Below, one piece after another: positions 13,517 through 49,314 of a stretch of DNA of 62,687 nt. The translations under genes were made by a program, and so were the position numbers. Within the stretch, counting starts at the first letter, position 1; the number at the start of each line of letters is the position of its first letter. The stretch is from an uncultured Candidatus Saccharimonas sp. (lineage in GTDB: Bacteria > Patescibacteriota > Saccharimonadia > Saccharimonadales > Saccharimonadaceae), in contig CAZEWP010000001.1 of assembly GCA_964516285.1 (NCBI GenBank), forward strand, positions 13,272 to 75,958. The letters are read 5' to 3'. The notes beneath the pieces were generated by a model, which was given only the letters and a program-made list of their open reading frames with translations, had not been told where the DNA came from and made no database searches.

Positions 13517-13626
13517 TTCGCGCCTAGGAACAGCGAATTATGGCTATACTCTCATTTATAGCTATAGTCCGCTGTTCCTGGAGTGTCCCACAGACAGCGA
13601 GAATTGGATGAAAGGAGGTGCGCTCA

Positions 13627-14730
13627 ATGCGCATCTCAGAAAAAAAATTGACTGGCAGAAGCCAGTCGATTATGGCCCTCGTGGCCAAAAAAAGACGCCA
13701 GATGGCGTCTTTGATCATGGCCCTAGTGGTCGTGGTCGGAATCGGTGGCGGGATTGCTTTATTCAGAAAGACCCCAACCACTACAGCCACCACAACCCAG
13801 CCAAGCCCTGCGACAGAGACCGTCACTCCGGATCCCAAGTTCCAAACGGTCCAGCATTTTGTGGCCGGCGCTAAAAACGCTGGCTGGTCACAAGACCAGT
13901 TGGCCGTAGAGTTTGTCAACAGCAATGCTGACAACTCCACGCCCGGAAACCAGGCGTTCTTGTCTAGTGGTGCTAAAACCACAACAGAACTTCTGGCGTG
14001 GCTCACTGGTAGTAGTCGAAGCGCCGAAGGCACTCGGTTATTAATAACCGAGTACACCGGCGCATCCGCCGGCGAGGTCCAAAACCCAGATTACTGGGTC
14101 GTGGCCCAAGCTAAGGCGGACTTCCGTTACACAGAGATGACTCTCTGGCGCAACGGAGCAATCCACACCCAAGCCGGCAAGGCCGGCAATGTTGGAGATA
14201 TCTTTTTTGCTTTCGTTCCTCCGCGGAATGAGAGCAAAATTGTGTATGTGCGAGGTGGATGTGCAAACCCCACCTTGAACGTTCCGACCCCCAACCAACC
14301 GACGCCGACCACGAGGCCGGCAACGACTCAGCCCCCAGTGGATGAGCCAGAGCCGACAACCCGTCCGTCCAAGCCCGGTGAGACGACCACCAGGCCGTCA
14401 ACCACCAAGCCAGAGCCGACCACAAGGCCAGCCACCACCCCGAAAGCCAAGGACCCCTCAAAAGATATCCTGGCCAATCCGAAGGTGGCGGATTGGAAGA
14501 AAAACGGCGGGGAGTTACTCCAAATCCTTTGGGATCTGGACGCTCCCAATGGCTATCAGCCAGCGCCTCGCGAAGAGGCAAAAGCGAAAGCCGACGCCAT
14601 CAATAGAGCCAACAAGGGGCTCGAGGAACAGCACAGTAGTGCCGTAGCCTCGGCCCCAGTCGTCGACGACAACCAGGGACACGTTGCCGTCACTAAGCCG
14701 AGCGACCCAAATTGGTCGCCCTTCGGCTAA
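13627..14730 (+). CDS. Membrane-anchored secreted protein with Pro/Thr-rich repeat linker (high-GC, probably horizontally acquired)
   Basis: The ATG at 13627 is preceded by AAAGGAGG with an 8-nt spacer; the track starts at GTG 13618. The protein has an N-terminal TM helix (LIMALVVVVGIGGGIALF), an unknown globular domain and EPTTRP-type repeats. The segment is ~60% GC, which produces spurious ORFs in all frames. Confidence 0.75.
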   Translation: MRISEKKLTGRSQSIMALVAKKRRQMASLIMALVVVVGIGGGIALFRKTPTTTATTTQPSPATETVTPDPKFQTVQHFVAGAKNAGWSQDQLAVEFVNSNADNSTPGNQAFLSSGAKTTTELLAWLTGSSRSAEGTRLLITEYTGASAGEVQNPDYWVVAQAKADFRYTEMTLWRNGAIHTQAGKAGNVGDIFFAFVPPRNESKIVYVRGGCANPTLNVPTPNQPTPTTRPATTQPPVDEPEPTTRPSKPGETTTRPSTTKPEPTTRPATTPKAKDPSKDILANPKVADWKKNGGELLQILWDLDAPNGYQPAPREEAKAKADAINRANKGLEEQHSSAVASAPVVDDNQGHVAVTKPSDPNWSPFG

Positions 14731-14871: not shown

Positions 14872-16113
14872 ATGAGTTTATTTTCATATTTTAAAAACAG
14901 CCCTAAACGAATTCTTGGTTTCGTAGTTATGCTTTTAGCTAGCATTGCCCTACCAACCACGATTCTAGCTTGGGGACCAATCAGACCAACCTACACCATT
15001 GAAAAGCCAGCTCCCCATGTTACTTTTAACTCTATCACTAATAACCCAAATTATGGTGATGAGCGAAACTTTGTAACTATCAAGGACGCTAGCAATCAAA
15101 ACGCTGGTGGCTGGGTTGACCAAATTACTGTTCAAGACGGCAAAGAATATTATGTTCGCATGTATGTTCACAACAATGCCGCCGAAAATCTAAACCTAGT
15201 AGCCAACAATGTAACTGCTAAGTTTAATGTTCCAACCTATAATGCGAAAAAAGTTCAAATTGATGGTTATCTATCCGCTGACAATGCCCAACCCAAAGAG
15301 ATTTGGGATCAAGCAGTTTTCGTCAGCGATCAAACCTTTAATTTAAGCTATGTAGCTGGTTCTACTACCTACACCAACAATATCTTCACTGACGGCACCG
15401 CCTTAACAGATGAGGTTATCGGTAACGGTGTCAAACTAGGTTACGAAAAACTTGACGGTAAAATCCCTGGTTGTTTCCAATTTAGCGGTCTAGTTATCTT
15501 TAAGGTTAAAGCCACCACTACTGACTTTAGTCTACAAAAAACTGTCCGCCTAACTGATTCAACCGATCGAGTTTTTAAAGAAAGCGTTAAAGCTAAACCA
15601 GGCGATAAGGTAGACTTCCAAATCTACTTTAAAAACACCGGTGGTACTCAACTTAAAAATGTTGTTATTAAAGACAAACTACCAGCTGGTTTAGAATATG
15701 TCGCTGGTTCATCTAAGTTATTCAACTCTGATGGACTTAAAGACATAGTAGATGGAATCACCACAACCGGTGTTAACATCGGTGGCTATATGCCAAATGG
15801 TGATGCCTATCTAATGTTTACCGCTAAAGTTGTTGCTAACGACAAACTCCCAGTTTGTGGGTTGAATAAACTTACTAACAAAGCCGAAGCTGTCACTAGT
15901 AACGGCACCAAAGAAGATACGGCCGAGGTCTTAGTCGATCGCTATTGTGAACCCGACAAAGAACCTGAACCACCAGTTGAACCTGAACCACCAGTAATTC
16001 CAGAAGAATTACCTGTCACTGGTCCAAGTGATATTGTTTCAGCCTTCTTAGGCCTTGGGTCTCTTGTTACTAGCGCTGGTTATTACCTTAATAGCCGACG
16101 CAACAAGCGTTAA
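14872..16113 (+). CDS. LPXTG-anchored surface protein with DUF11-like repeat domain
   Basis: 413 aa. RBS AAGGAGG, a signal peptide, the KPGDKVDFQIYFKNTGGTQLKNVVIKDKLPAGLEYV DUF11-like segment and an EPEPPV tandem repeat. The C-terminus has LPVTG, a hydrophobic helix and an RRNKR tail. Confidence 0.85.
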   Translation: MSLFSYFKNSPKRILGFVVMLLASIALPTTILAWGPIRPTYTIEKPAPHVTFNSITNNPNYGDERNFVTIKDASNQNAGGWVDQITVQDGKEYYVRMYVHNNAAENLNLVANNVTAKFNVPTYNAKKVQIDGYLSADNAQPKEIWDQAVFVSDQTFNLSYVAGSTTYTNNIFTDGTALTDEVIGNGVKLGYEKLDGKIPGCFQFSGLVIFKVKATTTDFSLQKTVRLTDSTDRVFKESVKAKPGDKVDFQIYFKNTGGTQLKNVVIKDKLPAGLEYVAGSSKLFNSDGLKDIVDGITTTGVNIGGYMPNGDAYLMFTAKVVANDKLPVCGLNKLTNKAEAVTSNGTKEDTAEVLVDRYCEPDKEPEPPVEPEPPVIPEELPVTGPSDIVSAFLGLGSLVTSAGYYLNSRRNKR

Positions 16114-16212: not shown

Positions 16213-18363
16213 TTATTTAACTGGCAACATAAAACCAAAGGTGCTACCCTTGCCCTCGATTGTTTCAAAAATAATCTTACCATCATGAGCATAAATAACC
16301 TTTTTAGCTAAATACAGCCCCACCCCTGAGCCACTCGGCCGTTGTTTTTTAGCGTTACTAGCCCTGTAAAACTTAGTAAACAACTCTTTTTGCTCAACTT
16401 TTGGCACACCAATTCCGCTATCTTGAACCGTAAAAGACACCCATTCACTATCACAGGCTAAACCAATTTTTATCTCACTCTTAGGGTGGGAATAAAAAAT
16501 AGCATTATCTATAAAGTTCATCACCACCTGACGAATCTTATTTTCATCAAGCTCTAACGGCGGCACCTCATCATGACAAGCACAGCTTAATTTAATCTCC
16601 TTTTTTTGAGCCACCATCAACAAACCATCAACCTCAGTCTTAACTAGCTCCATTAAATTAACCGTAGTTCGATCAACCACAAACTTACCTGTTTGCAACC
16701 TAGAAACATCAAGAAAATCATTAACCAACCGCACCATCTTATCGCTACTGATATAGGCATCAGCTAAAATCTTTTTCTGCTGACTACTTATCTTACCAGC
16801 ATCACCATCCGCTAACATACTAATATACCCCTTAATACTAGTTAACGGTGTTCTTAGTTGATGTGAAGCCATACTAATAAAATCGTCCTTAGCTTTATCT
16901 AGCTTTCTTAACATTGCGTTCTTAACCCTTAATTCTTTAATAGCCTCATCTATGCGCTGACGTAAAGTAATATTAAAATCTTGAATTTCTTCAACAGCTA
17001 AAGCATTCTGAATTGCAATTATTAAAGCGTTAGCAATGACGTTTAAAACCTCTAAATCACGGCTAACATAGTTCGACGACATCTTTTCACCAAGACACAA
17101 AAAGCCAATTAAACTACCTTTGCTAGTTAGTGGTAAGACTACTCCAATTTTATTTGTTAATAAAATTTGTTTAATTTCGTCTGTTTCTTCTAATGCTATT
17201 GTTGCTATAGCCCCAGCTTGCTTAGAAAAATAACCACTAATCTTCTCAATGTCTGAATCTACTAATTTCCTATAATTATCTGATCCCACTAATACATATT
17301 CTTTGTTTGGCAAATAAACAACGAAAAAAGCTTGCTCTGCTTTTAGGGTTACTGTTACTTCTTTAACTACTTTTTTTAAGAGCTCCCTCAAATCAGTTGT
17401 CACAGCTAAAGCCTGATTAATCCGAGCAAAAAACTCTTCTGTATTATAGTTGTCTCTATAAAATATTTTATTAGTTACTTTATCAAAAAAGCGCTTTAAT
17501 GGTTGGAATAATAAAACTAAAACCAAGCTAACTATAACATTAGCTATTAACTCTGCTGGGGTTGAACTACCCAGTTTTAAAAAACTAGATAAAACAGCCA
17601 TAGAGCCAATATAGATTCCAGCCATAGTGGCAAGCGATAATGAATAAGTAGCGCTTCGCACAATCGCCATCCGCACATCAAACAAACCACCCTTAAGGAT
17701 ACCGTAAGAAGTTACCCCAACAAAAATTATAGAAAAAAATGGCGTAATAGTATCTACTATCTTAGCCATATTTCCCTTAAACATAGGAGCGATAAAAATC
17801 ATTATCGCTATAGAAGCTGCTGTTAACCCAAAACCAAATAATATATAAGAAATATTGTTTTTATTAGTTTTATTTTTTTTCTTGTAATATAAAAACTTAA
17901 TTATTAATGTAAGGATACCTAAAAAAGCTAATAAATATATAGACCCAAAATACAACCAAGCAATTTCCCCGTGCACCGGTATGGCTGTACCCATAACAAC
18001 ATCAACATTTTTTACTATTTTATCTGTAAAAAATATAACGGGAAAAAGACTTATAATAAAACAGGCTATAAGTAAACAAAATGGTACCAATATTTTTCTA
18101 AATAAAAAGACTGGATAAGTTAAAATAAAAACAAAAAATAAAAACATACCTCCAACCCCAAAAATATCAGTTATTTTGACAGCTGTTAATGGCTGTAACA
18201 CATAATTCGATAAAGCAAATGACACCACCCATCCTGATAAGAAAAAAACTAATATAAAAAAAATTTTATTGTAAAGTTTGCGATGGTTACTTAACAAAAC
18301 AATAATTGACATAAACAACATAACTATCGCCAAAAGTATACTCATGATTACTATAACATTCAT
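16213..18363 (-). CDS. Sensor histidine kinase: about 9 TM helices (HisKA_7TM-like), GAF-like domain, HisKA, HATPase_c
   Basis: 716 aa. H-box SHQLRTPLTSIKGY and G-boxes DSGIGV / GSGVGL. The N-terminal half is polytopic. It overlaps the upstream methyltransferase gene by 4 nt. Confidence 0.85.
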   Translation of the reverse strand: MNVIVIMSILLAIVMLFMSIIVLLSNHRKLYNKIFFILVFFLSGWVVSFALSNYVLQPLTAVKITDIFGVGGMFLFFVFILTYPVFLFRKILVPFCLLIACFIISLFPVIFFTDKIVKNVDVVMGTAIPVHGEIAWLYFGSIYLLAFLGILTLIIKFLYYKKKNKTNKNNISYILFGFGLTAASIAIMIFIAPMFKGNMAKIVDTITPFFSIIFVGVTSYGILKGGLFDVRMAIVRSATYSLSLATMAGIYIGSMAVLSSFLKLGSSTPAELIANVIVSLVLVLLFQPLKRFFDKVTNKIFYRDNYNTEEFFARINQALAVTTDLRELLKKVVKEVTVTLKAEQAFFVVYLPNKEYVLVGSDNYRKLVDSDIEKISGYFSKQAGAIATIALEETDEIKQILLTNKIGVVLPLTSKGSLIGFLCLGEKMSSNYVSRDLEVLNVIANALIIAIQNALAVEEIQDFNITLRQRIDEAIKELRVKNAMLRKLDKAKDDFISMASHQLRTPLTSIKGYISMLADGDAGKISSQQKKILADAYISSDKMVRLVNDFLDVSRLQTGKFVVDRTTVNLMELVKTEVDGLLMVAQKKEIKLSCACHDEVPPLELDENKIRQVVMNFIDNAIFYSHPKSEIKIGLACDSEWVSFTVQDSGIGVPKVEQKELFTKFYRASNAKKQRPSGSGVGLYLAKKVIYAHDGKIIFETIEGKGSTFGFMLPVK

Positions 18364-19094
18364 CTGATATGCTCCATAATAAACAGTCGGTTTTGATTAG
18401 CTTGTATATCCTCCATATGTATAATCCTTAATTTAGACAACTTTGCAATTTTCTTTATTTCTATAAGACTATCATACTGTATTATCCCTCTTTTCGACAT
18501 TATATAGATTTTAAATTGACCCCAAAGCATATTAAAATATTTGGGAAGTCTTTTAAACATCTTGAGTATTACACAAATTTTTTGCATTAAGTTTAAACCA
18601 GACAAATGAGCATTAATAAATTTCACACTATTTGTTTCTTTATTTGGCTTAGGGTTTACTAGTATAATTTTAGCTTTTTGATCAGATAATAATCTGCGCA
18701 CAGAAATTAAAAACTTTTTTTTGTCATTAATAAAAAACAATACATTAACAATAATTATTACATCAAATTTTTTATTTATATTTAGATTATTTAAATCCAT
18801 TTTTATAAAATTAACCCTATCTCCATGAACAGATGAAGCTATTTTTAACATCTCAGAAGATGCATCAACAGCATAAATTCCACCTAAAAAATTATTCTTT
18901 AGAATTTCAGCCTCCAACAACCCACTACCACAGCCCAAATCAAGAATATTTCTAGGATTATAACTCAATGCCATTTTAGCAATTTTTGTATATTTTTCTC
19001 TATGTGATCTTGAATCTGAAGACACAAAATGAAAAGACCTTGCCATTTTATCCCAAACTGTTTTCTTTATTATTTCTTTATTTCTTTTTCTCAT
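18360..19094 (-). CDS. Class I SAM-dependent methyltransferase
   Basis: 244 aa. Motif I ILDLGCGSGLL. Confidence 0.75.
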   Translation of the reverse strand: MRKRNKEIIKKTVWDKMARSFHFVSSDSRSHREKYTKIAKMALSYNPRNILDLGCGSGLLEAEILKNNFLGGIYAVDASSEMLKIASSVHGDRVNFIKMDLNNLNINKKFDVIIIVNVLFFINDKKKFLISVRRLLSDQKAKIILVNPKPNKETNSVKFINAHLSGLNLMQKICVILKMFKRLPKYFNMLWGQFKIYIMSKRGIIQYDSLIEIKKIAKLSKLRIIHMEDIQANQNRLFIMEHIR

Positions 19095-19100
19095 AAAAAC

Positions 19101-19901
19101 TTATTTATTATAGATAACAAATTTTTTATTATAAAAATCCATAAGAGTTACAGCAGGAGCTGCCAATAATTTTTTATCTTTTTTAATATAAAAACTCACT
19201 AAATCTTCTAGCAATACTAGGTATATAGCAATCGCATGGCACCAACTAGGAAATACTTTTATTTTTCCCTTTATAACATCCCTGACAATTTTATTATTCG
19301 CTTCAACTGGTAAAATTGGAAATTGAATTTTAATAATCTTTTCCATAGAAAATTTACCATCTTCAAAAAATAAATCACCATAATGTGGGCCATCAGGATC
19401 TATATTCATCGAACTAAGCATACTACCAGAAATCTGAGCTGTCATAACCCATTTTTTCTGTTTTCTTGCAGCTTCTTGTAATTCTATTGATCTGTCAATA
19501 GAAAAAAATTCTATAGCATCTATTACAACATCACAACCCTCTATAAAACTATCCACATTATCTTTATTGATTCCGTAATCCCATACTTTTAATTTTATAT
19601 TAGGATTTATTCTCATTAATTCATCCGCAACAGCCAACGCCTTGTTTTTTCCAATAGTATCAATATAACAACCAAATTGTCTATTAATATTTGATATCTC
19701 AAAAACTTCTGGATCACATATATTAATATTTTCTACACCTAGTCTGACAAGCATGTGCGCCATTGACCCACCTAATCCACCAGCACCTGCAATAGCTACT
19801 TTCAGATTTTTTATTCTTTCTTGCTCCTTTTGAGTAAAAATACCAATATTTCTTTGAAACATTTCTTCATATTTATATTTCATATCTTTATTTTTAACCA
19901 T
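19101..19901 (-). CDS. ThiF/MoeB/HesA-family E1-like adenylyltransferase
   Basis: 266 aa. Nucleotide-binding loop VAIAGAGGLGGSMAHMLVRLGV followed by DPEVFEISNINRQ. Confidence 0.75.
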   Translation of the reverse strand: MVKNKDMKYKYEEMFQRNIGIFTQKEQERIKNLKVAIAGAGGLGGSMAHMLVRLGVENINICDPEVFEISNINRQFGCYIDTIGKNKALAVADELMRINPNIKLKVWDYGINKDNVDSFIEGCDVVIDAIEFFSIDRSIELQEAARKQKKWVMTAQISGSMLSSMNIDPDGPHYGDLFFEDGKFSMEKIIKIQFPILPVEANNKIVRDVIKGKIKVFPSWCHAIAIYLVLLEDLVSFYIKKDKKLLAAPAVTLMDFYNKKFVIYNK

Positions 19902-19919
19902 AGAATTAAACCTTTCTTT

Positions 19920-20849
19920 CTAAATAAATAATAACATAAATCTATAAAATTTTAATTTTATAGGAACTGTTAAAGATCCTAGGTAATATTTTGTTCCACC
20001 AATTCTAATTAAAAAAAGTGATAAAGGCCAATATTTAATCTTTAAACGATTAAAAAGGTTTTCGTCTATACAAGCTACTGTAATTTTTTTGTTTTTAATA
20101 CAATAGCTAATAACCATTCTATATAGCCCTTTTGCAATTTTTTGACCAGGAAGAGCAGCTAAACTTCCAATCTCAACGACTCTTTCGCCCTCTTTATACA
20201 ATCTTCTGCTTACTTTATTTTTAATATCAAAATTATTAATAACCGGCAAGCCTAGCTCTGAGTTATTAATTATCCTGATAACTCCAACTATTTTATCTTG
20301 CTCCTTAGCAATAAAATATTTTGAATAACGATTAAACTTATCTTTCTGTATGACATCCTTTTGATTCTCAGACAAATATCCGACCTCAACATATCTATTA
20401 AAAAGAAAATTTCTAGCTTTCAAAATTTCCTCGCCCCGAGCTTCCTTATAGATAATAGTTTTTTTATAAGCCTTATTGCCCGTCTTCCATATTATTAAAA
20501 ATGTGGTCACAAACAACCAAACTACAACTAAAACATATAACCACCACGGTAAATTTTTACCAAATATAAAAATATAAAAATAGGGAGCAACCCAGCCAAA
20601 ACGATTAATCACCAACCCTTTAATAAAACCTTCTTCCGATATAAGTTTAGTTATGTCTATTTTTTTTGTTCTAACATATTCTCTTTTGTAATACTGATAT
20701 CCACTCTTTATCATTAGGTATTCTCCAAAATAATAAATTGGTATCGTTATTAAATATAAACAAATATAAAATATTGGGTTTACATTATAAACATCTACAG
20801 CTTGATTAAAAAGATGACTAATAAAATTCATATATTCTATATTATACAT
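19920..20849 (-). CDS. Membrane-anchored GNAT-fold N-acyltransferase (FeeM / N-acyl amino acid synthase-like)
   Basis: 309 aa with 3-4 N-terminal TM helices. The C-terminal region (DKIVGVIRII...LPV...VVEIGSLAALPG) resembles the autoinducer-synthase-like GNAT subfamily. The call is from memory of the family pattern. Confidence 0.5.
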   Translation of the reverse strand: MYNIEYMNFISHLFNQAVDVYNVNPIFYICLYLITIPIYYFGEYLMIKSGYQYYKREYVRTKKIDITKLISEEGFIKGLVINRFGWVAPYFYIFIFGKNLPWWLYVLVVVWLFVTTFLIIWKTGNKAYKKTIIYKEARGEEILKARNFLFNRYVEVGYLSENQKDVIQKDKFNRYSKYFIAKEQDKIVGVIRIINNSELGLPVINNFDIKNKVSRRLYKEGERVVEIGSLAALPGQKIAKGLYRMVISYCIKNKKITVACIDENLFNRLKIKYWPLSLFLIRIGGTKYYLGSLTVPIKLKFYRFMLLFI

Positions 20850-20886
20850 AAGTAGTGTTGTTTTAATATAAAACTTATCTATGTTC

Positions 20887-21417
20887 TTATTTAACTATAG
20901 CTTTAATAATCGCAGGGCTTTCTAAGCATTTATTTATTACTTCACTGAAAGATACTTTACGGCTAATGAGCTCTTCGACTTGATAGGTTTCTTTTTCTTG
21001 ATAACTACATATTTTATAATATTCACGAATCCTTTTTCCAAACTCATAACCATTATCTATATCTTTTGACACTTCTGGTGGTAGTTGAAGAGGTGAGCTT
21101 AAGTTATAAATCCAGTGATCACCGTAAAATATAGATGCACAACAAATTAAATTGTATATTCCATCAATCTTCTTTAAGCCACCCTCTAACCCAATAGCAA
21201 ATAAAATATTATCTTTATGGACGTCTTTAAAAGCATTTTTTGCTCGATTTTTAGCACCAGTGATAGTTTCTTTCTCTGTAGTTGGCTGATCTGACACACC
21301 AGAATCTACATCACATTTTATAATTGAAAATTTATAACCTTTTTTATCTAGACATTCTGCTAAGATATTATATTTATCTTGACTGGTTGACCCAATAGCT
21401 GTTTTTAAAATTTCCAT
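20887..21417 (-). CDS. DUF84 / YjjX-like non-canonical purine NTP phosphatase
   Basis: 176 aa. DSGVSDQPTTEKETITGAKNRAKNA matches the YjjX signature (SGV.EQP..ET..GA.NR). Confidence 0.7.
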   Translation of the reverse strand: MEILKTAIGSTSQDKYNILAECLDKKGYKFSIIKCDVDSGVSDQPTTEKETITGAKNRAKNAFKDVHKDNILFAIGLEGGLKKIDGIYNLICCASIFYGDHWIYNLSSPLQLPPEVSKDIDNGYEFGKRIREYYKICSYQEKETYQVEELISRKVSFSEVINKCLESPAIIKAIVK

Positions 21418-21468
21418 AATTAAACTCTCCTTATGTCATACATTCTTTTTTAGTTAAAGTTATAATAG

Positions 21469-21500
21469 AAAAAATCCCTACCATAAAATACAGTAGGGAT
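21469..21500 (-). terminator. Rho-independent terminator/attenuator downstream of the small peptide ORF
   Basis: On the minus strand: atccctac-loop-gtagggat followed by tttttt. It lies between the peptide ORF and the DUF84 gene. Confidence 0.65.
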
Positions 21501-21594
21501 AGTTTAGTTTTTAACAGAGAGGTTACTTTAATTTAGTTTGATAATATTATCTTTAACTAGTTTTTATAAATACCACCTTACATTTGTATTGTAA

Positions 21595-21744
21595 TTACAC
21601 TTTTTCTTTAAAAGAACTACCACAACAATTTTTACCAGACATAAATATAACTTTAGTAATTGATTCACCAGAGGGTAGAGTTTCTTCTTTGCGAACAGGT
21701 TCCTGAAGATTTTTTCTCTTAACTCGTGTTTGAAGAACTTTCAA
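21595..21744 (-). CDS. Unannotated 49-aa peptide, candidate RiPP precursor: MKVLQTRVKRKNLQEPVRKEETLPSGESITKVIFMSGKNCCGSSFKEKV
   Basis: Translated by hand. A TTG start is preceded by AAAGGAG with a 9-nt spacer, and the codon before the TTG is a stop. It sits 46 nt downstream of the radical SAM/SPASM gene and is followed by a terminator. It is below the ORF-track length cutoff. Confidence 0.6.
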   Translation of the reverse strand: MKVLQTRVKRKNLQEPVRKEETLPSGESITKVIFMSGKNCCGSSFKEKV

Positions 21745-21790
21745 TTAAAACTACTCCTTTCTGTAAGATTTTTTATATCATCTAGAATTA

Positions 21791-23107
21791 TTATTCTAGA
21801 TTTAAACATTTATAATATTTTTGAAGAATATAACTTGTTGTGTCAAATAATATATCAGAACACACCTTCTTGCCAATAAATCTTGCCTTTCGACACCCTC
21901 CTTTACAAATTGGTAGAATCTTACAATTCAAACAATCATTATCATTAAACGGATTAGTATTAATAAAACGATTATACCTAGAGAAATCCTTTTGTGATGC
22001 AAAACCAAAACGCACATTGCCAACAGCTTCCTCTTTTTTCATGCTTTGAGAACACATAAACAAATCTCCGTCTTGATCAATCATGAAAGATTTATCAAAA
22101 TCACATTCGCAAAAATTATAAGATATACCTTCATCAAAAGAATTTGTGATAAAACCCATTTCTTCTGCTCTTTGATAAAGAAATGAAATATTAGCTATGG
22201 GTGATTGTTTTTTTATCTTTTCAGAGAACATTTTTCCAGGACTTCTTCCGTCAGTATGTTCATAAACCAAACGAAAAATTAAAACACAACGTTCTTTAAT
22301 AGCATTAGGTATTCTTTCTAACATAGTTGGTATACTGGCATAATTATCATCAGTTATGTTAACTCTAAGGATTGATGCAACATCAGATTTAGTTTTTTTA
22401 CAATAGTTATTAAAATTTCTAATAATAGTATCAAAAGTCCCATGCCCAGTATTTTTTATAAAGCGGTATGTATTATGAATATCTCTGTCACCATCCAAAG
22501 TTACTTGAACACTTTTAATGTGTAGTTTTTCGATCTGATTAACAAAATCTTCATCAAGCAATACTCCATTTGTAACAAGACTAGCCACATATTCAAATTT
22601 GTATTTATTACGCAATACATCAATCTTCTTTGTTAGGCGTTGAATAGTATCTTTCGAAAGTAACGGCTCACCACCATACCAAGTTAAATAGAGTGATTTA
22701 ATGCCAATAAGCTGACTTTCTAACCATATAATATAATCTTCTTCAGTTTGCCGACTCATAAATTTACCTGTTTTGGATTCAAAACAGTAGGGACAATCAC
22801 AGTTACAAGCAAGATTCGGTAAAATAGTATGTCGTAATATACTTGACGAATACAAACTCCTACTCCATTCAAGTTTAAAAAATTCAAGCTCATCCATACC
22901 ATCATCAATAATAAATAATTGTTCTTTTAATTGGCTAATCATTTTAAGGCTCTCTGCATCAGACACCACAAAATTTTTTTCTATTAATCGCTGATACAAA
23001 ACAACTTCTTCAAGAGATAGCTCAACTATATTTTTATATAGGGTGTTATAGATTATTCCACGACCATCGGGTAAATTAACTAGAAAGTTGTAATATGAAA
23101 GCTTCAA
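21791..23107 (-). CDS. Radical SAM / SPASM-domain peptide maturase (anSME-like family)
   Basis: CNCDCPYC contains CX3CX2C. The C-terminal SPASM motif is CLNCKILPICKGGC (CX2CX5CX3C) with upstream Cys/Gly elements. The ~100-aa N-terminal extension could be an RRE. The preferred start is TTG 23107, with RBS AAGGAGAGG 6 nt upstream; the track start is 23140. Confidence 0.85.
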   Translation of the reverse strand: MKLSYYNFLVNLPDGRGIIYNTLYKNIVELSLEEVVLYQRLIEKNFVVSDAESLKMISQLKEQLFIIDDGMDELEFFKLEWSRSLYSSSILRHTILPNLACNCDCPYCFESKTGKFMSRQTEEDYIIWLESQLIGIKSLYLTWYGGEPLLSKDTIQRLTKKIDVLRNKYKFEYVASLVTNGVLLDEDFVNQIEKLHIKSVQVTLDGDRDIHNTYRFIKNTGHGTFDTIIRNFNNYCKKTKSDVASILRVNITDDNYASIPTMLERIPNAIKERCVLIFRLVYEHTDGRSPGKMFSEKIKKQSPIANISFLYQRAEEMGFITNSFDEGISYNFCECDFDKSFMIDQDGDLFMCSQSMKKEEAVGNVRFGFASQKDFSRYNRFINTNPFNDNDCLNCKILPICKGGCRKARFIGKKVCSDILFDTTSYILQKYYKCLNLE

Positions 23108-23166
23108 CTTTATCCTCTCCTTTTTGTTAAAAATCAACAAACCTTCTTTCGGGTTTATCTATACTA

Positions 23167-23196
23167 GTTATACACCTATAACAGTAACCTTGTCAA
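23167..23196 (-). promoter_or_regulatory. Promoter TTGACA-18 nt-TATAAC for the radical SAM operon
   Basis: Read on the minus strand. Its -35 box overlaps the -35 box of the divergent plus-strand promoter. Confidence 0.5.
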
Positions 23197-23218
23197 ACAT
23201 ATGTAGAGACTATATAAT
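23190..23218 (+). promoter_or_regulatory. Promoter TTGTCA-17 nt-TATAAT for the nucleoside phosphorylase gene
   Basis: Read directly. Confidence 0.55.
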
Positions 23219-23276
23219 ATATTTTGTTAGATATAACTTTTTTATAAAACACCTAATAGAAAGCGTTAGATAGTGT

Positions 23277-24011
23277 ATGATAACCTTTGACCCTAATAAA
23301 CAAGCCATTTTTGATCCACCAACTTTAAATTTAGACAGGCAGGTGGATAAAGCAATTTTAGTTTTTGATGATGAAGTTTGGGAAGATTATATTATTCCTA
23401 ATAAAGATTTAGTTAGTTTTGATGTTAAAAATTTAAAAGGCCGAGTTTTCAATACTTTCCGTTATCTAGAACATCACGGGCAAAACGTTTTATTAGTCTA
23501 TCCATCGACCGGAGGGCCAGCTTCAGCTGGTGACCTAGAACTTTTGATAGCTAGTGGTGTTAATAAAATAGTTGCTTTTGGAACTTGTGGAGCGATGGAT
23601 AAAAATATCCCCAAAAACACGATTATTTTACCAACTAGCGCTATTCGAGAAGAAGGAGTTAGCTATCATTATTTAGAACCTACTGATGAGATAGCTCAAG
23701 AGCAAAATTCAATTAACGCTATGAAAACAGTTTTTATTAAAAAAGGTGTCGATTATTTAGCTGGTAAAGTTTGGACAACTGATGCAGTTTATCGCGAAAC
23801 AGTTGGTAAAAAAGAAGCTTTTAAATCAAAGGGCTGTTTAGCAGTTGATATGGAACTGGCTTCTCTATTAGCGGTGGCTAAATTTCGAGCTATTAAATTT
23901 GCTCAGTTTTTGATCACGGATGATAATATTGATGGTGTCAATAAAAATAGCAGAGATAGAAATTCTAAAGAATTATTAAATCTTGCACTTGAAATAGTTA
24001 AATTATTATAA
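23277..24011 (+). CDS. PNP/UDP-family nucleoside phosphorylase
   Basis: 244 aa. STGGPASAG, AFGTCGAMD and VDMELASL are motifs typical of the uridine/purine nucleoside phosphorylase family. Confidence 0.75.
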   Translation: MITFDPNKQAIFDPPTLNLDRQVDKAILVFDDEVWEDYIIPNKDLVSFDVKNLKGRVFNTFRYLEHHGQNVLLVYPSTGGPASAGDLELLIASGVNKIVAFGTCGAMDKNIPKNTIILPTSAIREEGVSYHYLEPTDEIAQEQNSINAMKTVFIKKGVDYLAGKVWTTDAVYRETVGKKEAFKSKGCLAVDMELASLLAVAKFRAIKFAQFLITDDNIDGVNKNSRDRNSKELLNLALEIVKLL

Positions 24012-24289
24012 CTGAATTAAAAAACTGTAATTTTTTACATACATCGTGAGATAAAGATTTTGTGCTAAATAATAACTATAAAACACGATTACAGATTTTA
24101 AGCCGTGGATTAATTATTGTTTTTTAAATACTTTCCAATAATTGTGATATCCACCATATCAGTATTTAACACTAAAAACTATAGTTAAAGACGCCATAAA
24201 AAATCTTTAACTTTTTAAATTAAGTTATAAAATTCAACATTTACCCATGATTGTGTTACTATAAATTTATTACTAAATAAGTATTTATA

Positions 24290-25861
24290 ATGAAAAACCA
24301 AAAAACACCGAAACCCCAATCACTTCATCATCTATTTGAACAAAAGCGTAAAGAATTTGGAGATCGCCCCTTTATTTGGGATAAATGGCATAGTGAGGAT
24401 TTTACCCCGCATAGCTATAAAGAGATTATTACTGATATTCAAATCGTAGCTAATTATTTATTATTAGCAAAATATAAAGACCAAAGAGTTGTTTTGTTCT
24501 CTGAGAATAGTTATTACTGGTATGTCTGTAATATGGCGATTACTGGCTATGTTGGAATTTCGGTGGCGGCTAATAAAGATTGGCAAGAATATGATTTAGA
24601 AAATGCTTTAAAAGTTGTTGGAGCAAAATTAGTAATTTATTCAGCTAAAAACGCTGAAACAATTGAAGAGCTTCGGCGTAAGTATAAGAATATTGTTTTT
24701 ATTTCTATGGATAAAATTGCGGATATTATTAAACACAAAAGAGAAGAATCACCAGTGGTCAATAAAAAACTACTAGCCGACAATGCCCAAGCTGGCGATA
24801 AGCTATGTCAAATTATATTCACAACTGGATCTAGTGGCCTACCTAAAGCTGTGCCGATTTCCTTTAATAATATGGAACCTTGTTATGACATGATGCTTAG
24901 TCGGCTTCCTTTTACGGCTAACGATCGACACTACCTGTTTTTGCCACTATCTCATGTCTTCGGTAATATGGCGGCCTTAGTTTCTTTCCGTCAGGGACAT
25001 AAACTATATCTCTGCTCAGATACTAAAGCTGTTAAAGAAGAACTTAAAGTTGCCAAGCCAACCATTGTTTGTGGTGTGCCTTTATTTTTAAACAGAATCT
25101 ATGATGGCCTAAATGAATCAACCGTTCAAACCATTAATCGCTTGGCTAAACTTACCACTCCACTGGCTAAAATTGGAATTAATGTCCGTAAAGTTGTTTT
25201 TAAAAAACTCTACAAAGCTTTTGGCGGTAATCTAAAGTATTTCATTTGCGGAGCAGCCCCTTTAAACCCTGATATCAAGCAACTTTTTTTGAATGTCGGG
25301 ATTGATTTTGTTGAGGCTTACGGTATGAGCGAGACATGTGCTTTTATCACTATGGAAAAAAGAGGTCAACAAATTGCTAATTCAGTGGGAACTCCTTATG
25401 ATGCTGTTGATTGCAAGATTATTGATAAAGATAAAAATGGGGTTGGCGAAGTAGTTATTAAAGGGCCAAATGTTTTTGCCGGCTATTACAAACAAGGAAA
25501 AATTGATAAATCAGCTTTTGATAAAAAAGGCTATTTTCACACTGGTGATTTAGGTTATTTTGATAAGCAAGGCCGACTCTTTTTAACTGGTCGCAAAAAA
25601 CGCTTAATCCTAACCTCAAATGGAGAAAATGTTTCACCTGATGAATTAGAGGGCTTAATTGCTAAGCACCTAAAAGCTAAAAATATTAAAGTTTTTGCCA
25701 CTGACGATGGTATTGCCACCATTATTTATCCATTAGAAAATGATGGGCGAGCTAATGATGAGTTTAAAGCTATTATTGATGAACTTAATTTAGATTTGCC
25801 AAAATTTAAACAAATTAGAGTAGTTAACATTAATCGCAGTAGCGAGATGAGTGTTAAATAA
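24290..25861 (+). CDS. AMP-forming acyl-CoA ligase (long-chain fatty acid-CoA ligase-like)
   Basis: 523 aa. AMP-binding core IFTTGSSGLPKAV, YGMSET, GYFHTGDLGYFD and GRKKRLI. Confidence 0.85.
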   Translation: MKNQKTPKPQSLHHLFEQKRKEFGDRPFIWDKWHSEDFTPHSYKEIITDIQIVANYLLLAKYKDQRVVLFSENSYYWYVCNMAITGYVGISVAANKDWQEYDLENALKVVGAKLVIYSAKNAETIEELRRKYKNIVFISMDKIADIIKHKREESPVVNKKLLADNAQAGDKLCQIIFTTGSSGLPKAVPISFNNMEPCYDMMLSRLPFTANDRHYLFLPLSHVFGNMAALVSFRQGHKLYLCSDTKAVKEELKVAKPTIVCGVPLFLNRIYDGLNESTVQTINRLAKLTTPLAKIGINVRKVVFKKLYKAFGGNLKYFICGAAPLNPDIKQLFLNVGIDFVEAYGMSETCAFITMEKRGQQIANSVGTPYDAVDCKIIDKDKNGVGEVVIKGPNVFAGYYKQGKIDKSAFDKKGYFHTGDLGYFDKQGRLFLTGRKKRLILTSNGENVSPDELEGLIAKHLKAKNIKVFATDDGIATIIYPLENDGRANDEFKAIIDELNLDLPKFKQIRVVNINRSSEMSVK

Positions 25862-25889
25862 TTAGTAAGCTAAATTTTACATAGGCGGT

Positions 25890-26797
25890 ATGAAATATAG
25901 TAAAGTTTACATTAAACAAGCTAGCACACATGTCGCAGGTCATGTTTTTGAGCATGTTGTGGCTAATTTTATACAAGAAAACCTCTTTACTAAAGGGTAC
26001 TTAAAACTACTAGATTACCGTTTTGGGCTTATACAGATGATGGCATTGTTCAGATCCGCTTCGAAACACAACAACAAGCAATCCTAGCTGAATTTGAAAA
26101 GAACATAAAACTAGTTGAAGTCTCTGAAAAACTTGTTAAGGTTGCCCTTGAACAGATTAGTTGTGAATATGAAAAACTGCCAAACTTTAAAATTTCTGAA
26201 TTATTAGAAGAAATTAAAGAAATAGTTAGAATAAAATGGGTTGAGTGTGACGATTATTATCGCTCGGCACCGATCCATGATCAAGCTAAGACTTTAAAGT
26301 CTGAGTCTGGAGAATTTGGACGCAAAACACCACAAAATTTTCAAGAATACGCTTTTATTTACGAGATAGAGGGTTGTCCTTTTGAGCTAAAACCTCTAGC
26401 TGTCTATATTGTCTTAGGTCTTGCCTTAAACCAGATTATTAAACTTTATGAGGTGCTTGGTAGTTGTTATGACTTCTCTGATGAATGGGCAGAATACCAA
26501 GAACTGGTTGGATATGCTCATTATTTAAGAGTTCCTAAAAAGTCTCAATTAACTTTGGAAGCTTTGCAAAAGATTGAGCTGGCCAACCGCCAAGAAATAC
26601 TAAATCATGACTTTGCTAAAAAGCTACACAACTATATCCAACACCAATCTCTGTCCGCTCACCATTATTTAACACTATCTGAGATGTATGCTTACTCGCA
26701 CCAGTATATTGGGAAAGCTGGTTGGGATGAAATTAATACTAGTAAAAATATTGAGAAGATACTGAATTCGCTAAAAATTAGAGTAGAAAAAAGATAG
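25890..26797 (+). pseudogene. Frameshifted gene for a protein of about 300 aa with an HxxEH (inverted zincin, M16-like) motif
   Basis: The frame starting at 25890 stops at 26087. A second frame is open from 25994 to 26797 and has no plausible start before 26453. A 1-nt indel between 25994 and about 26030 would join them; tttt at 26021 and aaaa at 26003 are candidate sites. The N-terminus carries GHVFEHV. Confidence 0.55.
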
Positions 26798-28479: not shown

Positions 28480-28854
28480 ATGGTAAAGATTGCAATTATA
28501 GAAGATGATGAACTCATCGGCCAAATGTATCGGATGAAATTTGAAGTTGAAAATTTCGATACCGAACTAGCTATTGACGGCGTCTCAGGGCTAGATTTAA
28601 TAGAAAATTATAATCCAGATTTAGTGCTTCTCGATTTACAGATGCCAGAGATGAATGGTGATGAAGTGTTAAGAAATATGCGCAAAAAAGACTGGGGGAA
28701 AGATATTCCGGTTATTATCCTAACCAACACCGGTAAGGAAGAAGCCCCTAAAGGTCTAGATAAATATAATGTTTATAGCTATATTGTCAAAGCAGAGTTA
28801 ACCCCCCGTGAGGTGGTCGTTAAAGTTAAAGAAGCTTTAAACTTAAAAGATTAA
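28480..28854 (+). CDS. Single-domain response regulator (CheY-like receiver only)
   Basis: 124 aa. EDDE acidic pocket, phospho-acceptor context LVLLDLQMP, and a conserved K near the C-terminus. No output domain. Confidence 0.85.
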   Translation: MVKIAIIEDDELIGQMYRMKFEVENFDTELAIDGVSGLDLIENYNPDLVLLDLQMPEMNGDEVLRNMRKKDWGKDIPVIILTNTGKEEAPKGLDKYNVYSYIVKAELTPREVVVKVKEALNLKD

Positions 28855-28863
28855 GATAAATCT

Positions 28864-29613
28864 TTATTCGAAAGATAAATCATTTCTCTGAATACTATTT
28901 ACTTTCTTAGCGTGGACCACTAATTTTTTTGAAGGAATATCTGAATAACAAGTTGATAAGGTTAAGACTTGATCTCCAGTGGCAACATGGGTGCTAAAAT
29001 TGTAAATACTTCTCTTTTTAATTAGTTTAATAAAATCATTAAACTCTTCTTTAGAAAAACTGGTGGCAATATAGTCATCTGTATCCAGAATTACATAAAT
29101 ACTAAAAATCTTCCACAAAGCACTTTCTTGTTCTTGGGCTGTCTGAATGATTAAATTATCTTCATTTAAAAACCAGTCTTTCTTTAAAGTGTTTTTTAAT
29201 GAGCCAAATAAAGTTAAATCCTTCCTGGCATGGGCGTAAAGAATGATATTTTGGTCATTAAAAGAGTTCCGATAATCCATAAAGACCCAACCCGCTTCAT
29301 TCCTGGTTTTATCAAGAGAATGATTTAAATAGAAAGTATTATTAATGGTTTTAACAAAGGGATAATCAATCTTAGTATTTTTGATTTTAAGATATCCAAT
29401 TATTTCTTGATTAATTTTCTTTAAATCAGACCAAGAAATCTTTAAGAAATCATTATCTTCTTTTAGGTTAGCAACTTTATGAACTAATTCAATGTCTTGA
29501 CTGGTACGCGAAGAATCTCTTTGCCAAACAATTATCTTATAAGCGGAAAAGAATAAAACTAAGCTAAGCAACACTATTAGCGCTAAAAATAAAAACCTTT
29601 TAGGCCGATTCAT
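28864..29613 (-). CDS. srtB: Class B-like sortase
   Basis: 249 aa with an N-terminal TM anchor. IDYPFV...YLNHS...MDYRN...ILYAHA and the catalytic TLSTCY motif. Confidence 0.75.
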   Translation of the reverse strand: MNRPKRFLFLALIVLLSLVLFFSAYKIIVWQRDSSRTSQDIELVHKVANLKEDNDFLKISWSDLKKINQEIIGYLKIKNTKIDYPFVKTINNTFYLNHSLDKTRNEAGWVFMDYRNSFNDQNIILYAHARKDLTLFGSLKNTLKKDWFLNEDNLIIQTAQEQESALWKIFSIYVILDTDDYIATSFSKEEFNDFIKLIKKRSIYNFSTHVATGDQVLTLSTCYSDIPSKKLVVHAKKVNSIQRNDLSFE

Positions 29614-44695: not shown

Positions 44696-44773
44696 TGGGG
44701 CGAACGATGGGGTTCGAACCCACGACCTTCGGATCCACAGACCGACGCTCTAACCAACTGAGCTACGTTCGCC
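44696..44773 (-). tRNA. tRNA-His: tRNA-His (anticodon GUG) with encoded G-1 and CCA
   Basis: GGCGAACG.../...CGTTCGCC-CCA: the extra 5' G pairs with discriminator C73. The anticodon loop contains GTG. Confidence 0.85.
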
Positions 44774-44968
44774 ATATTTTGATGCTGGTGCCCTTTTGGT
44801 GGAAGTATAACAACCACTAGGCATAAATTTATAGGCAGTAATAACTACTAACTAGTTAAATTATACTACATTTTTTATATTTTGCGTTAAAAATTTACTA
44901 TTTTTTGTATAAAAAGATAAAAATTAAAAATTTTATGTTACAATAGTTATGAAAGAAGGTAGATAAAT

Positions 44969-45757: not shown

Positions 45758-45936
45758 ATTATCAAATAAAAGCCGTGGCACGTTTTGTTGCGTAAGCAAT
45801 GAAAGTGGCGATAGGCTTTCTCTTTTATTTTCATTACGAAGTTTTGAAAATAAAAACATAATTTTGCTTGGCTTTATGCCTTGCTAAAATTATGCTTTAA
45901 AGGGTTTAAAAAGGGAAATTCCCTTTTTCACACCGT

Positions 45937-45966
45937 TATTGGCTTTGCCAATAGCGTAGTGTGTTA
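45937..45966 (+). promoter_or_regulatory. Candidate oriT: hairpin tattggc-ttt-gccaata followed by TAGTGTG/TTA
   Basis: The 10-mer TAGTGTGTTA matches my recollection of the pMV158 MobM nick region (GTGTG/TT). A hairpin immediately 5' of the nick site is the usual MobV oriT layout. Confidence 0.45.
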
Positions 45967-46012
45967 CCATTTCGACAAAATGGTCTTTTACGACGAGTTG
46001 TAGCTCGTTTTT

Positions 46013-49106
<3,094 letters not shown>

Positions 49107-49127
49107 TTATCAACCTCACTTTCTATC

Positions 49128-49176
49128 AAAAAAGAGGGGTCAAAAATACTAGATAACTAATACCTTTGACTCCTCT
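49128..49176 (-). terminator. Long hairpin (12-bp stem with one mismatch) followed by a T-run on the minus strand, between the 91-aa gene and the recombinase gene
   Basis: agaggggtcaaa ... tttgactcctct, read directly. It could instead be a regulatory or recombinase-binding site. Confidence 0.4.
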
Positions 49177-49314
49177 TTAAAATCAAGTATAAACTTTTAA
49201 ATATGTTATATGTGCTTTTAATCATAGAAGTACCTCTCTTTCCCCTTAAAAAGCGATACTGCTTGCTTTTATTAGTTCTATACTATAAACTTTTATTCTT
49301 GATTTGTCAAGGTT

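Follow-up and report, generated by a model that had tools for sequence, protein, structure and literature searches.

The window analysed here is a 62,687-nucleotide stretch from an uncultured Candidatus Saccharimonas sp. We studied a group of genes in it that the original prediction had read as a single locus, in which a small peptide is modified by a radical S-adenosylmethionine (rSAM) enzyme and by several tailoring enzymes. This region is probably a juxtaposition of two modules in a Saccharibacteria genome. Each of them is conserved independently of the other, with the functions that we propose for them below. Module A (21,595-24,011) contains an rSAM/SPASM maturase, a 49-aa precursor peptide with two adjacent cysteines and a neighbouring nucleoside phosphorylase-like (PNP-like) gene. 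Module B (16,213-20,849 plus 24,290-26,797) contains an acyl-CoA ligase, a FeeM-like GNAT, a ThiF/E1-like enzyme, a methyltransferase, a histidine kinase and an associated HxxEH protein. By analogy with characterised systems, it is most likely a new variant of the pathways of the OxzAB/TyzABC type, which combine an N-acyl amino acid synthase (NAS) with a ThiF-like enzyme.

Two independently conserved modules at one site

Domains were called by Pfam and NCBIfam profile searches of the open reading frames (ORFs) of the window. Every ORF of the earlier list was found, at its coordinates or within a few bases of them. The 46-nt gap between the maturase and peptide genes and the 4-nt overlap between the methyltransferase and kinase genes are also present. 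The genes from the maturase to the kinase form a string on the minus strand. The PNP-like and ligase genes run divergently from this string.

The loci for comparison were retrieved by pattern-based scans (patterns NFCECDF and CKGGCRKA for the maturase). The few homologues of the GNAT and those of the ThiF-like enzyme gave access to the module B loci. The sample consists of 13 + 1 loci for module A and seven for module B, the window being counted in both. All proteins of the window were compared by tblastn with the 13 other distinct rSAM loci. The maturase, the peptide and the PNP-like protein have homologues in 13/13. The GNAT, the ThiF-like enzyme, the methyltransferase, the DUF84 protein and the ligase have homologues in 0/13. 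A homologue of the kinase is present in 1/13 (L014), on the opposite strand. Likewise, tblastn finds neither rSAM, peptide nor PNP-like genes in the other module B loci with DNA. The conservation of gene neighbourhood therefore holds for the maturase and the peptide, together with the PNP-like gene. It does not hold for the full gene set as one unit.

The DUF84 gene (20887-21417, minus strand; PF01931, 83 bits) codes for an NTPase similar to inosine/xanthosine triphosphatases. The GNAT gene follows 37 nt downstream. By tblastn, none of the other loci of either module has a homologue of DUF84. L027 has its ligase and GNAT genes in direct divergence, with an intergenic region of 89 bp between them. 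The block DUF84-peptide-rSAM-PNP occupies the site of this region in the window. Module A and DUF84 lie inside the divergent ligase/GNAT promoter region of module B. A terminator-like hairpin with a T-run (21474-21500, minus strand), already noticed after the 49-aa ORF, is the sole terminator-like site across 20.7-24.4 kb. It stands between the precursor gene and DUF84, and it separates module A from DUF84 and module B.

The same genes could instead form one integrated pathway. The Cys-Cys peptide would be cross-linked by the rSAM enzyme, lipidated by the ligase and the GNAT, adenylated at its C-terminus by the E1-like enzyme and methylated, and the product would be a signal sensed by the co-transcribed kinase. 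This is close to what the original prediction had outlined. It agrees with the co-directional and tight packing of all genes from the maturase to the kinase. It also agrees with an arrangement that is stable in three independent assemblies, and with read-through of the only terminator, about 57 nt from the DUF84 start, being possible. Nevertheless, we consider it very improbable. The putative tailoring genes (GNAT, ThiF, methyltransferase and ligase), as well as DUF84, are missing from all of the 13 other rSAM-peptide loci. The tailoring genes recur elsewhere without rSAM or peptide, in six other module B loci. The kinase set recurs likewise in other Patescibacteria, which does not favour a role of the kinase as a sensor of the peptide product. 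The ThiF-like enzyme is always accompanied by a GNAT of the NAS type, which is the pattern of the oxazolone pathways for small molecules (PMC10404671). A microcin C-like chemistry of the E1-like enzyme had also been suggested. However, its residues 14-112 match only residues 97-195 of MccB, the Rossmann core, and it has no MccB-like N-terminal extension for peptide binding. Moreover, the peptide ends in Val (...KEKV), not in Asn. A NAS next to a ThiF follows the oxazolone logic.

Two points weigh against the independence of the modules. The sample of loci is small and biased to close relatives, because it comes from pattern-based scans. In addition, both modules could be co-transcribed here, since the terminator is possibly leaky, only those 57 nt are left for a promoter, and the genes from DUF84 to the kinase are tightly spaced.

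The maturase and its precursor peptide

The maturase gene (21791-23107, minus strand) encodes 438 aa. Its start is a TTG at 23107, with AAGGAGAGG upstream; an alternative TTG is located upstream at 23140. The protein matches PF04055 (48 bits) and the SPASM model TIGR04085 (50 bits, cut-off 27). We aligned 72 homologues. In the rSAM cluster motif C101-x3-C105-x2-C108, C101 and C105 are invariant, and C108 is conserved in at least 90%. In the seven-Cys SPASM motif (C333-x13-G347-x4-C352, C392-x2-C395-x5-C401-x3-C405, C416), all positions are invariant.

The top NCBIfam models are Clo7bot TIGR04334 (228 bits, cut-off 600), TIGR04463 (212 bits, cut-off 525) and CefB NF038107 (191 bits, cut-off 600). 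PapB (107 bits, cut-off 340) and SCIFF (72 bits, cut-off 425) also score below their cut-offs. The homologues in L004, L024 and L029 are likewise under the Clo7bot, TIGR04463 and CefB cut-offs. Kinship with sulfatase maturases, which had been considered as a counter-case, is not what we find. The sulfatase maturase model TIGR03942 scores 77.5 bits (cut-off 349), against 191-228 bits for the peptide maturases, and no sulfatase gene is present in any rSAM locus examined.

The AlphaFold2 (AF2) model of the maturase has a pLDDT of 92.6. Its top Foldseek match is CteB (5WHY/5WGG), over the full length and with a TM score of 0.72-0.75. TigE and anSME come next. Residues 7-86 are modelled as three strands and then three helices (pLDDT about 95), which is the topology of a RiPP (ribosomally synthesised and post-translationally modified peptide) recognition element, or RRE. 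The alignment with CteB, which contains an RRE, has 456 columns, against about 385 for anSME, which has none. It is thus only in the structure model that the N-terminal domain, where a PqqD-like RRE had been suspected, appears RRE-like. Against this assignment, a Pfam scan of the first 97 residues gives no PqqD/RRE domain.

The precursor gene (21595-21744, minus strand) encodes a peptide of 49 aa, MKVLQTRVKRKNLQEPVRKEETLPSGESITKVIFMSGKNCCGSSFKEKV. It starts with TTG, and AAAGGAG is found 8 nt upstream. No Pfam or NCBIfam model matches the peptide. However small, this ORF is conserved. A homologous ORF of 48-66 aa, with a strong Shine-Dalgarno sequence of the GGAGG type and an ATG start, lies downstream of the rSAM gene in 13/13 other distinct Saccharibacteria loci. 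No close rSAM homologue examined is without it. Saccharibacteria metagenome-assembled genomes (MAGs) are the source of the homologues, whose identity is 52-65%. A HMMER scan of 1.84 billion representative proteins gave only seven further peptide clusters.

In the peptide alignment, E21, G26, C40 and C41 are invariant. C40 and C41 are the only invariant residues of the core. The C-terminal consensus is L-[PN]-x-G-[EQ]-S-I-[TS]-[KR]-A-[IV]-x-M-G-x-[KR]-x-C-C-G-x-x-[FY]-x-E. The closest pairs have pN/pS values of 0.12-0.15, and the two more divergent pairs have 0.31-0.32. The peptide ORF is under purifying selection. Together with the Shine-Dalgarno sequences, the peptide-maturase scores and the structural match to CteB, this supports, from sequence comparison, a genuine pairing of the rSAM enzyme as maturase with the small Cys-Cys ORF as its precursor. 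In this part, the original prediction stands. In module A, the precursor family is new, and the enzyme belongs to a known kind.

More distant rSAM homologues also adjoin Cys/Gly-rich peptides. They are found in Leptothrix (L024, ...DCGKCGDCGKCGDC...), in L030 and in L029 (...NCCSSYY...). No protease or exporter is conserved near the rSAM-peptide loci, so module A resembles the minimal two-gene SCIFF systems.

The chemistry that we infer for this pair follows the analogy with CteB, PapB and QhpD. The RRE would bind the peptide by its N-terminal part. Then, the rSAM cluster would make a 5'-deoxyadenosyl radical that takes a hydrogen atom from a core residue. Finally, one or both of the adjacent cysteines would form an intramolecular thioether. 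The conserved Glu and the downstream aromatic residue are candidate acceptors.

A different product would not involve a thioether at all. The enzyme could install a three-residue cyclophane that links the conserved [FY] to the second residue after it ([FY]-x-E is like the aromatic-X-X of triceptides), epimerise a residue or oxidise cysteine. The conserved [FY]-x-[E/D/K] five residues after Cys-Cys is consistent with a cyclophane, as are the weak matches to the models of the cyclophane-forming YhhB (73 bits) and of FxsB. The second structural match is TigE, which is not known to be a thioether synthase. We regard these products as unlikely. The two cysteines, and not the aromatic residue, are the invariant part of the core, and the Cys/Gly-rich cores of the more distant homologues have no aromatic motif. 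Besides, the top sequence models are all maturases of Cys-rich peptides, ranthipeptides or SCIFF, and the top fold match is CteB.

Two side observations concern this family. In L007 (13142-16901), the trio of rSAM, peptide and PNP-like genes has two more radical SAM genes (of 469 and 431 aa) at 2-5 kb downstream, and an ORF of 30 aa follows one of these two. This may be a small RiPP island. The repeat protein P0260 (1012 aa) has eight copies of WQEQTLPxGDSxNSITCVTTSFCEA, which resemble the TLPxGESITK...CC region of the precursor. We judged this to be a chance or convergent resemblance, and P0260 was rejected as a relative of the precursor.

The PNP-like gene next to the cassette

The PNP-like gene (23277-24011, plus strand, 244 aa; PF01048, 99 bits) had been listed before only as a divergent neighbour, and its consistent link to the RiPP pair was missed. 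It adjoins the rSAM-peptide pair in 14/14 loci, in two arrangements and with otherwise unrelated flanks. It is the sole gene with such a consistent link. In seven loci, it is divergent and upstream of the cassette, with a gap of 101-205 bp (169 bp in the window). In the other seven, it is convergent and downstream, with a gap of 52-92 bp (983 bp in L011). The PNP-like gene is never co-directional with the cassette, and the cassette can be on either side of it.

The closest solved relative of the PNP-like protein is the 5'-methylthioadenosine (MTA) phosphorylase of S. solfataricus (SsMTAP, 1jds; E = 2e-20). The DeoD PNPs and AMP nucleosidase follow. The family models are under their cut-offs: MTAN NF004079 (16 bits, cut-off 169), HpnG (43 bits, cut-off 187) and DeoD (52 bits, cut-off 230). 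Residues M192, E193, D216 and R228 are invariant in the 14 orthologues. From the alignment, M192/E193 and D216 correspond to the 'EME' and 'SD' of solved enzymes, and would be the ribose-binding Met-Glu and the catalytic Asp. The motif 'IR[VY]G[TS]xGA' of SsMTAP, B. cereus PNP and E. coli uridine phosphorylase (UP) is changed to 'VAFGTxGA', with its Arg replaced by an invariant Ala. AMP nucleosidase has Phe at this position. The phosphate-binding arginines of E. coli PNP are R24, R43 and R87. The equivalent of R43/R48 is mostly retained in the PNP-like protein. Before residue ~47, nothing could be aligned with the solved structures, neither the R24 region nor the invariant FDDE.WE motif of the N-terminus. 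This motif might replace the GDPxR phosphate loop or mimic the acidic loop of MTAN.

Enzymes of the rSAM class are inhibited by 5'-deoxyadenosine. The PNP-like enzyme would cleave 5'-deoxyadenosine, and also MTA or adenosine. This cleavage would relieve the product inhibition of the maturase and would recover adenine in a purine-auxotrophic cell. In our preferred reading, the protein would cleave purine (5'-deoxy)nucleosides and thereby remove the by-product of the rSAM reaction.

Several observations weigh against this reading. PNP orthologues without rSAM persist in four Saccharibacteria contexts (L031, L033, L034/35 and L036/37). A PNP-based scan gave more than 590 relatives, most with 32-40% identity, in unrelated contexts without rSAM. 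In L029, the maturase has 45% identity with that of the window, and no PNP-like gene lies within 8 kb. These cases make the functional link one-sided, and the adjacency may be a matter of position alone. Furthermore, the type of reaction (phosphorolysis or hydrolysis) is uncertain, because a canonical phosphate-binding Arg is Ala. A wider proposal, in which the PNP-like family as a whole would be an rSAM accessory family, was rejected, since a survey of the neighbours in 53 loci gave no recurrent neighbour and no rSAM.

The adjacency could also be without functional meaning, if the cassette inserts or survives beside a conserved resident gene that acts as a hot spot for insertion or an anchor for recombination. 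The pair L034 and L004 is in line with this. The two loci are syntenic (97% nucleotide identity at the PNP-like gene), and L034 is without exactly 1,567 bp, which are rSAM plus peptide (L004 9978-11544 against 5979-5981 of L034, reverse complement). The 1.57-kb indel is clean, and the PNP-like gene beside it is unchanged. We looked for target-site duplications at the cassette junctions, and only a weak, imperfect short repeat (TTAGCACAAA-like) is present. The base composition also suggests separate histories. The GC content of the rSAM gene is 0.30 in the window and ranges from 0.30 to 0.54 across genomes, often sharply unlike that of the adjacent PNP-like gene, which never shares the direction of the cassette. 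On the other hand, the remaining neighbours vary, while the gap between PNP-like gene and cassette stays at 52-205 bp in 13/14 loci. The cassette on either side of the gene, the inhibition of rSAM enzymes and the kinship with MTA phosphorylase also speak for a function. We give the positional explanation appreciable weight, and think that it is rather unlikely.

The most radical explanation makes the PNP-like protein a dedicated tailoring enzyme. The rSAM enzyme would adenosylate the Cys-Cys peptide, and the nucleosidase would remove adenine and leave a ribosyl-type adduct, similar to what MqnE/MqnB or HpnH/HpnG do. If true, this modification of a RiPP would belong to a new class. The adjacency in 14/14 loci despite rearrangements is compatible with it. 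So are the weak match to the HpnG model and a hydrolase-like site, in which the phosphate-binding Arg is lost and the base- and ribose-binding residues are retained. Nonetheless, the PNP-like gene is intact in the strain without the cassette, the family has its hundreds of relatives in contexts without rSAM, and L029 combines a related rSAM and a CC peptide without any PNP-like gene nearby. The maturase is also a CteB-like SPASM enzyme, and the characterised relatives abstract hydrogen instead of adenosylating. Of all the explanations weighed in this work, we find this one the least probable.

Beyond the reading preferred here, the removal of the rSAM by-product, the composition bears on the mobility of the cassette. 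In L023, L007, L013 and L014, the rSAM gene has a GC content of 0.48-0.54, against 0.37-0.43 for the adjacent PNP-like gene and the flanks. This difference suggests that the cassette was exchanged between lineages independently of its PNP neighbour.

The PNP-rSAM intergenic regions of L007, L013, L014, L020 and L023 have a conserved extended -10-like element (TGnTAnAAT), about 20-40 nt upstream of the PNP start. Nearer to rSAM, the same five regions share a conserved block, AATCGAnTTAnGTCAATG. Neither the element nor the block is recognisable in the PNP-rSAM gap of the window.

The NAS-ThiF module

The GNAT (19920-20849, minus strand) matches the FeeM family of N-acyl amino acid synthases (PF21926, 38.6 bits, cut-off 27), and more weakly the Acetyltransf_5 and LBL_2463 families. 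The window protein itself has no PF00765 (Autoind_synth) match in Pfam. Its homologue in L112 passes TIGR03694 and PF00765 (40.9 bits, cut-off 24). Homologues with 40-55% identity precede the ThiF and methyltransferase genes in L026, L027 and L111. The protein had been described as membrane-anchored. The N-terminal ~125 residues are indeed a conserved hydrophobic domain, which is a separate ORF in L113. However, only the segment 102-120 passes a strict hydropathy threshold.

The ThiF/E1-like adenylating enzyme (19101-19901, minus strand, 266 aa) matches PF00899 with 129.5 bits. Among the NCBIfam models, PRK08223 scores highest (163 bits, cut-off 266); the Rv1355c (TrzS) family gives 67 bits (cut-off 476). 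It is a stand-alone ThiF, without a Cys-x-x-Cys pair. In the homologous loci, its gene always adjoins that of the methyltransferase. In the window, this is a class I SAM-dependent methyltransferase (18360-19094, minus strand; Methyltransf_25/11/12). The overlap of 4 nt between the methyltransferase stop and the kinase start is one of five such overlaps, in the window, L026, L112, L113/114 and P0137.

The histidine kinase (16213-18363, minus strand) has HisKA (67 bits) and HATPase_c (89 bits) domains. The kinases of L026 and L027 share 50% identity with it. About nine transmembrane helices and a GAF domain had been attributed to it. We find eight strongly hydrophobic segments in residues 1-286, and a GAF match under the Pfam cut-off (24.7 against 28.6 bits). 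HisKA_7TM aligns with it from end to end, weakly (E = 0.056); the homologues in L014 and L112 pass the cut-off. No response regulator adjoins the kinase. The nearest one is a receiver-only protein at 28480-28854, which is syntenic in L026. In L014 (12117-15368), the RiPP trio and the kinase homologue are convergent, and the gene after the kinase codes for an LPG_synthase_C protein, similar to the C-terminal part of MprF. This arrangement is another link of the kinase family to membrane-lipid enzymes.

On the plus strand, the ligase (24290-25861) is an AMP-binding acyl-CoA/acyl-AMP ligase (PF00501, 192 bits). Beyond it lies the gene of the HxxEH protein (25890-26797, plus strand), which tblastn and a three-frame translation resolve as one gene with a single frameshift, as had been supposed. 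The N-terminal ~45 codons are in one frame and ~262 codons in another. In an independent assembly, the gene is likewise called as split ORFs. Intact homologues of 312/313 aa are found in L026 (15373-16311) and L027 (7538-8479), directly after the kinase. In the window, the gene is not at this place but beyond the ligase. The HxxEH protein has no Pfam match.

The composition of the module varies between loci. L027/28 has the ligase divergent from a GNAT-ThiF-MT-kinase-HxxEH string (MT, methyltransferase). In L026, the order is GNAT, a racemase and ThiF-MT-kinase-HxxEH, with the ligase (74% identity) about 6.5 kb from the GNAT. L026 also shares the flanking synteny of the window, with the response regulator, a polyprenyl synthase and this ligase. 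In L111, the order is GNAT-ThiF-MT-ThiF-ligase, and the ligase is co-directional. L112, from a distant Patescibacterium, has an Autoind_synth/FeeM GNAT followed by ThiF-MT-kinase (HisKA_7TM, GAF), and all starts overlap. L113/114 has a GNAT-like gene, the membrane domain of the GNAT as a separate ORF, and ThiF-MT-kinase. Finally, the P0137 locus has ThiF-MT-kinase.

Previous works support the analogy with small-molecule pathways. TyzA N-acylates Tyr/Phe from lauroyl-CoA, and the ThiF-like TyzB cyclises the product with ATP (PMC10404671). TrzA/TrzS follow the same logic for Trp (PMC12856293). OxzA/OxzB was described as the only case of a ThiF-like enzyme acting on a small molecule (PMC12596934). 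The stieleriacine clusters of Stieleria combine NAS, ThiF, nitroreductase (NTR) and methyltransferase (PMC12479983). A NAS together with a ThiF-like enzyme is the signature of acyl-oxazolone pathways, whose donors are acyl-CoAs (PMC10404671, PMC12856293, PMC12596934). One point weighs against this assignment. All characterised oxazolone pathways have a nitroreductase (a flavin oxidase acting as desaturase). No such domain is present in the genes scanned at 13.6-31.6 kb of the window, and the other module B loci have none among their Pfam annotations.

For module B, we infer the following steps by this analogy. The ligase would activate a scavenged fatty acid; Saccharibacteria and other Patescibacteria must scavenge lipids from their hosts. 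The FeeM-like synthase would N-acylate an amino acid with it. The ThiF-like enzyme would adenylate the free carboxylate, leading to an oxazolone-type cyclisation or another substitution, and the methyltransferase would add a methyl group. The translationally coupled kinase would sense this lipid, or a membrane state that the lipid reports.

Going further, module B could be a pair of signal synthase and receptor, in which an autoinducer derived from an N-acyl amino acid is sensed by the co-translated kinase. We put this forward tentatively, as a possibility that is more doubtful than not. It is more likely, and less radical, than the adenosylation of the peptide in module A. If true, this autoinducer/kinase circuit would be the first in Patescibacteria. 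As to the substrate of the ThiF-like enzyme, it could also be the C-terminus of a protein or peptide (a sulfur carrier like ThiS/MoaD, or a ubiquitin-like protein) instead of an N-acyl amino acid. In favour of this, its Rossmann core is matched by the ThiF, MoeB and E1 models alike. However, no small ORF ending in GG is called in any module B locus, the enzyme sequence has no Cys-x-x-Cys zinc motif, and its gene is constantly linked to the NAS-type GNAT or to the membrane domain of the latter, as in OxzAB/TyzABC. The chance of a C-terminal substrate is therefore small in our estimation.

Composition, assembly and other features of the window

The GC content is 26-32% over 17-25 kb, and the window mean is 37%. 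The low GC had been contrasted with flanks of 40-47%. The left flank fits these values, but the right flank has 32-38%. Low GC as proof of a single horizontally acquired island was rejected. It does not mark such an island because the module B genes are the AT-richest in L026 and L027 too (GNAT, ThiF and methyltransferase), and the rSAM gene varies in GC between genomes as described. A chimeric assembly join had been raised as a possible artefact. The region has no such join, since the gene order is identical on contigs assembled independently from three runs (SRR8925715, SRR8925753 and SRR8925814). An Rfam scan of 15.5-27.5 kb gave no riboswitch or leader at E <= 1. A promoter scan was at chance level (19 hits found, 20.8 expected).

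Other parts of the window present features of their own. At 44,700-49,800, there is a second low-GC island (25-30% GC) with strongly negative AT skew. It carries a large serine recombinase (47238-49103, minus strand) and a Mob_Pre relaxase (46013-47311, minus strand), and sits between tRNA-His (44696-44772) and tRNA-Gly (49681-49755). We read this island as a probable integrative mobilisable element. At 13,600-14,730, a stretch of 53% GC has long overlapping ORFs on both strands. Among them is a Pro/Thr-rich ORF of 370 aa (13618-14730, plus strand), for which Pfam gives no informative match. At 14,872-16,113, we find a surface protein with DUF11 repeats, a terminal LPVTG and a hydrophobic tail. 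A sortase gene is located at 28,864-29,613, 13 kb from it. These two genes indicate Gram-positive-type surface anchoring in this genome.

Significance

The Patescibacteria, Saccharibacteria included, are ultra-small epibionts. Most descriptions credit them with almost no specialised metabolism. One survey of MAGs reported that none of those from Patescibacteria had any biosynthetic cluster (PMC11613949). The module A cassette occurs across many Saccharibacteria, including those from human oral samples (L004-L006, HMP-type). Gained and lost as a 1.6-kb unit between near-identical strains, it is a candidate for strain-level differences toward hosts or competitors. Module B ties a putative fatty-acyl amino acid pathway to a sensor kinase, and it is a candidate circuit for lipid signalling or envelope remodelling. 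Adjacency in a single genome was misleading here. By comparison with other loci, what looked like a 'hybrid' cluster was resolved into two modules.

Comparison with known systems

In our searches of the literature on radical SAM enzymes, RiPPs and ranthipeptides of Saccharibacteria and Patescibacteria, on ranthipeptides with nucleoside phosphorylases and on autoinducer synthases of the candidate phyla radiation, we found neither module described.

The maturase resembles CteB of the CteB/CteA (SCIFF) system, and PapB, in its rSAM core and SPASM domain (two auxiliary clusters) and, in the structure model, in its putative RRE-like N-terminus. With CteB/CteA, module A shares the minimal cassette of two genes, a Cys-containing precursor of 45-60 aa and the lack of a conserved protease or exporter. 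However, the sequence identity with CteB is 17-18%. The precursor of the window has two adjacent cysteines, not six spread-out ones. Unlike in the SCIFF and PapB systems, the maturase gene precedes the precursor gene, and a PNP-like gene is always adjacent.

Clo7bot TIGR04334, TIGR04463 and CefB NF038107 are also rSAM/SPASM enzymes paired with short Cys-rich peptides. To our knowledge, none of these families has been characterised biochemically. The maturase of the window is far under their curated cut-offs (525-600), and its precursor matches no model.

The PNP-like protein shares the NP-I fold with MTAN, SsMTAP, MqnB and HpnG. Its gene adjoins an rSAM gene, which is also the case for mqnB and hpnG in their pathways. 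By score, it is outside the MTAN, HpnG and DeoD families, and one phosphate-binding Arg is Ala. Moreover, the wider PNP-like family usually stands alone, in contrast to these enzymes.

The likeness to microcin C (MccA/MccB) consists of an E1/ThiF-like enzyme near a ribosomal peptide gene. Nevertheless, the ThiF of the window has no N-terminal peptide clamp of the MccB kind. Its partner is the GNAT and not the peptide, which has 49 aa and a C-terminal Val.

Module B is similar to OxzAB of Pseudoalteromonas rubra, TyzABC and TrzAS of M. tuberculosis, as a NAS lies beside a ThiF-like enzyme, and an acyl-activating ligase is linked to them in the window. The likeness of this ThiF to OxzB/TyzB comes from its domain and gene context, and the Rv1355c (TrzS) model scores well below its cut-off. 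The methyltransferase is shared with the Stieleria clusters (PMC12479983). In contrast to OxzAB, TyzABC and TrzAS, module B has no nitroreductase or flavin oxidase, and its NAS has an N-terminal hydrophobic domain. It also differs from them in its methyltransferase coupled to a multi-pass-membrane/GAF kinase, in its HxxEH protein and in its host, a member of the Patescibacteria.

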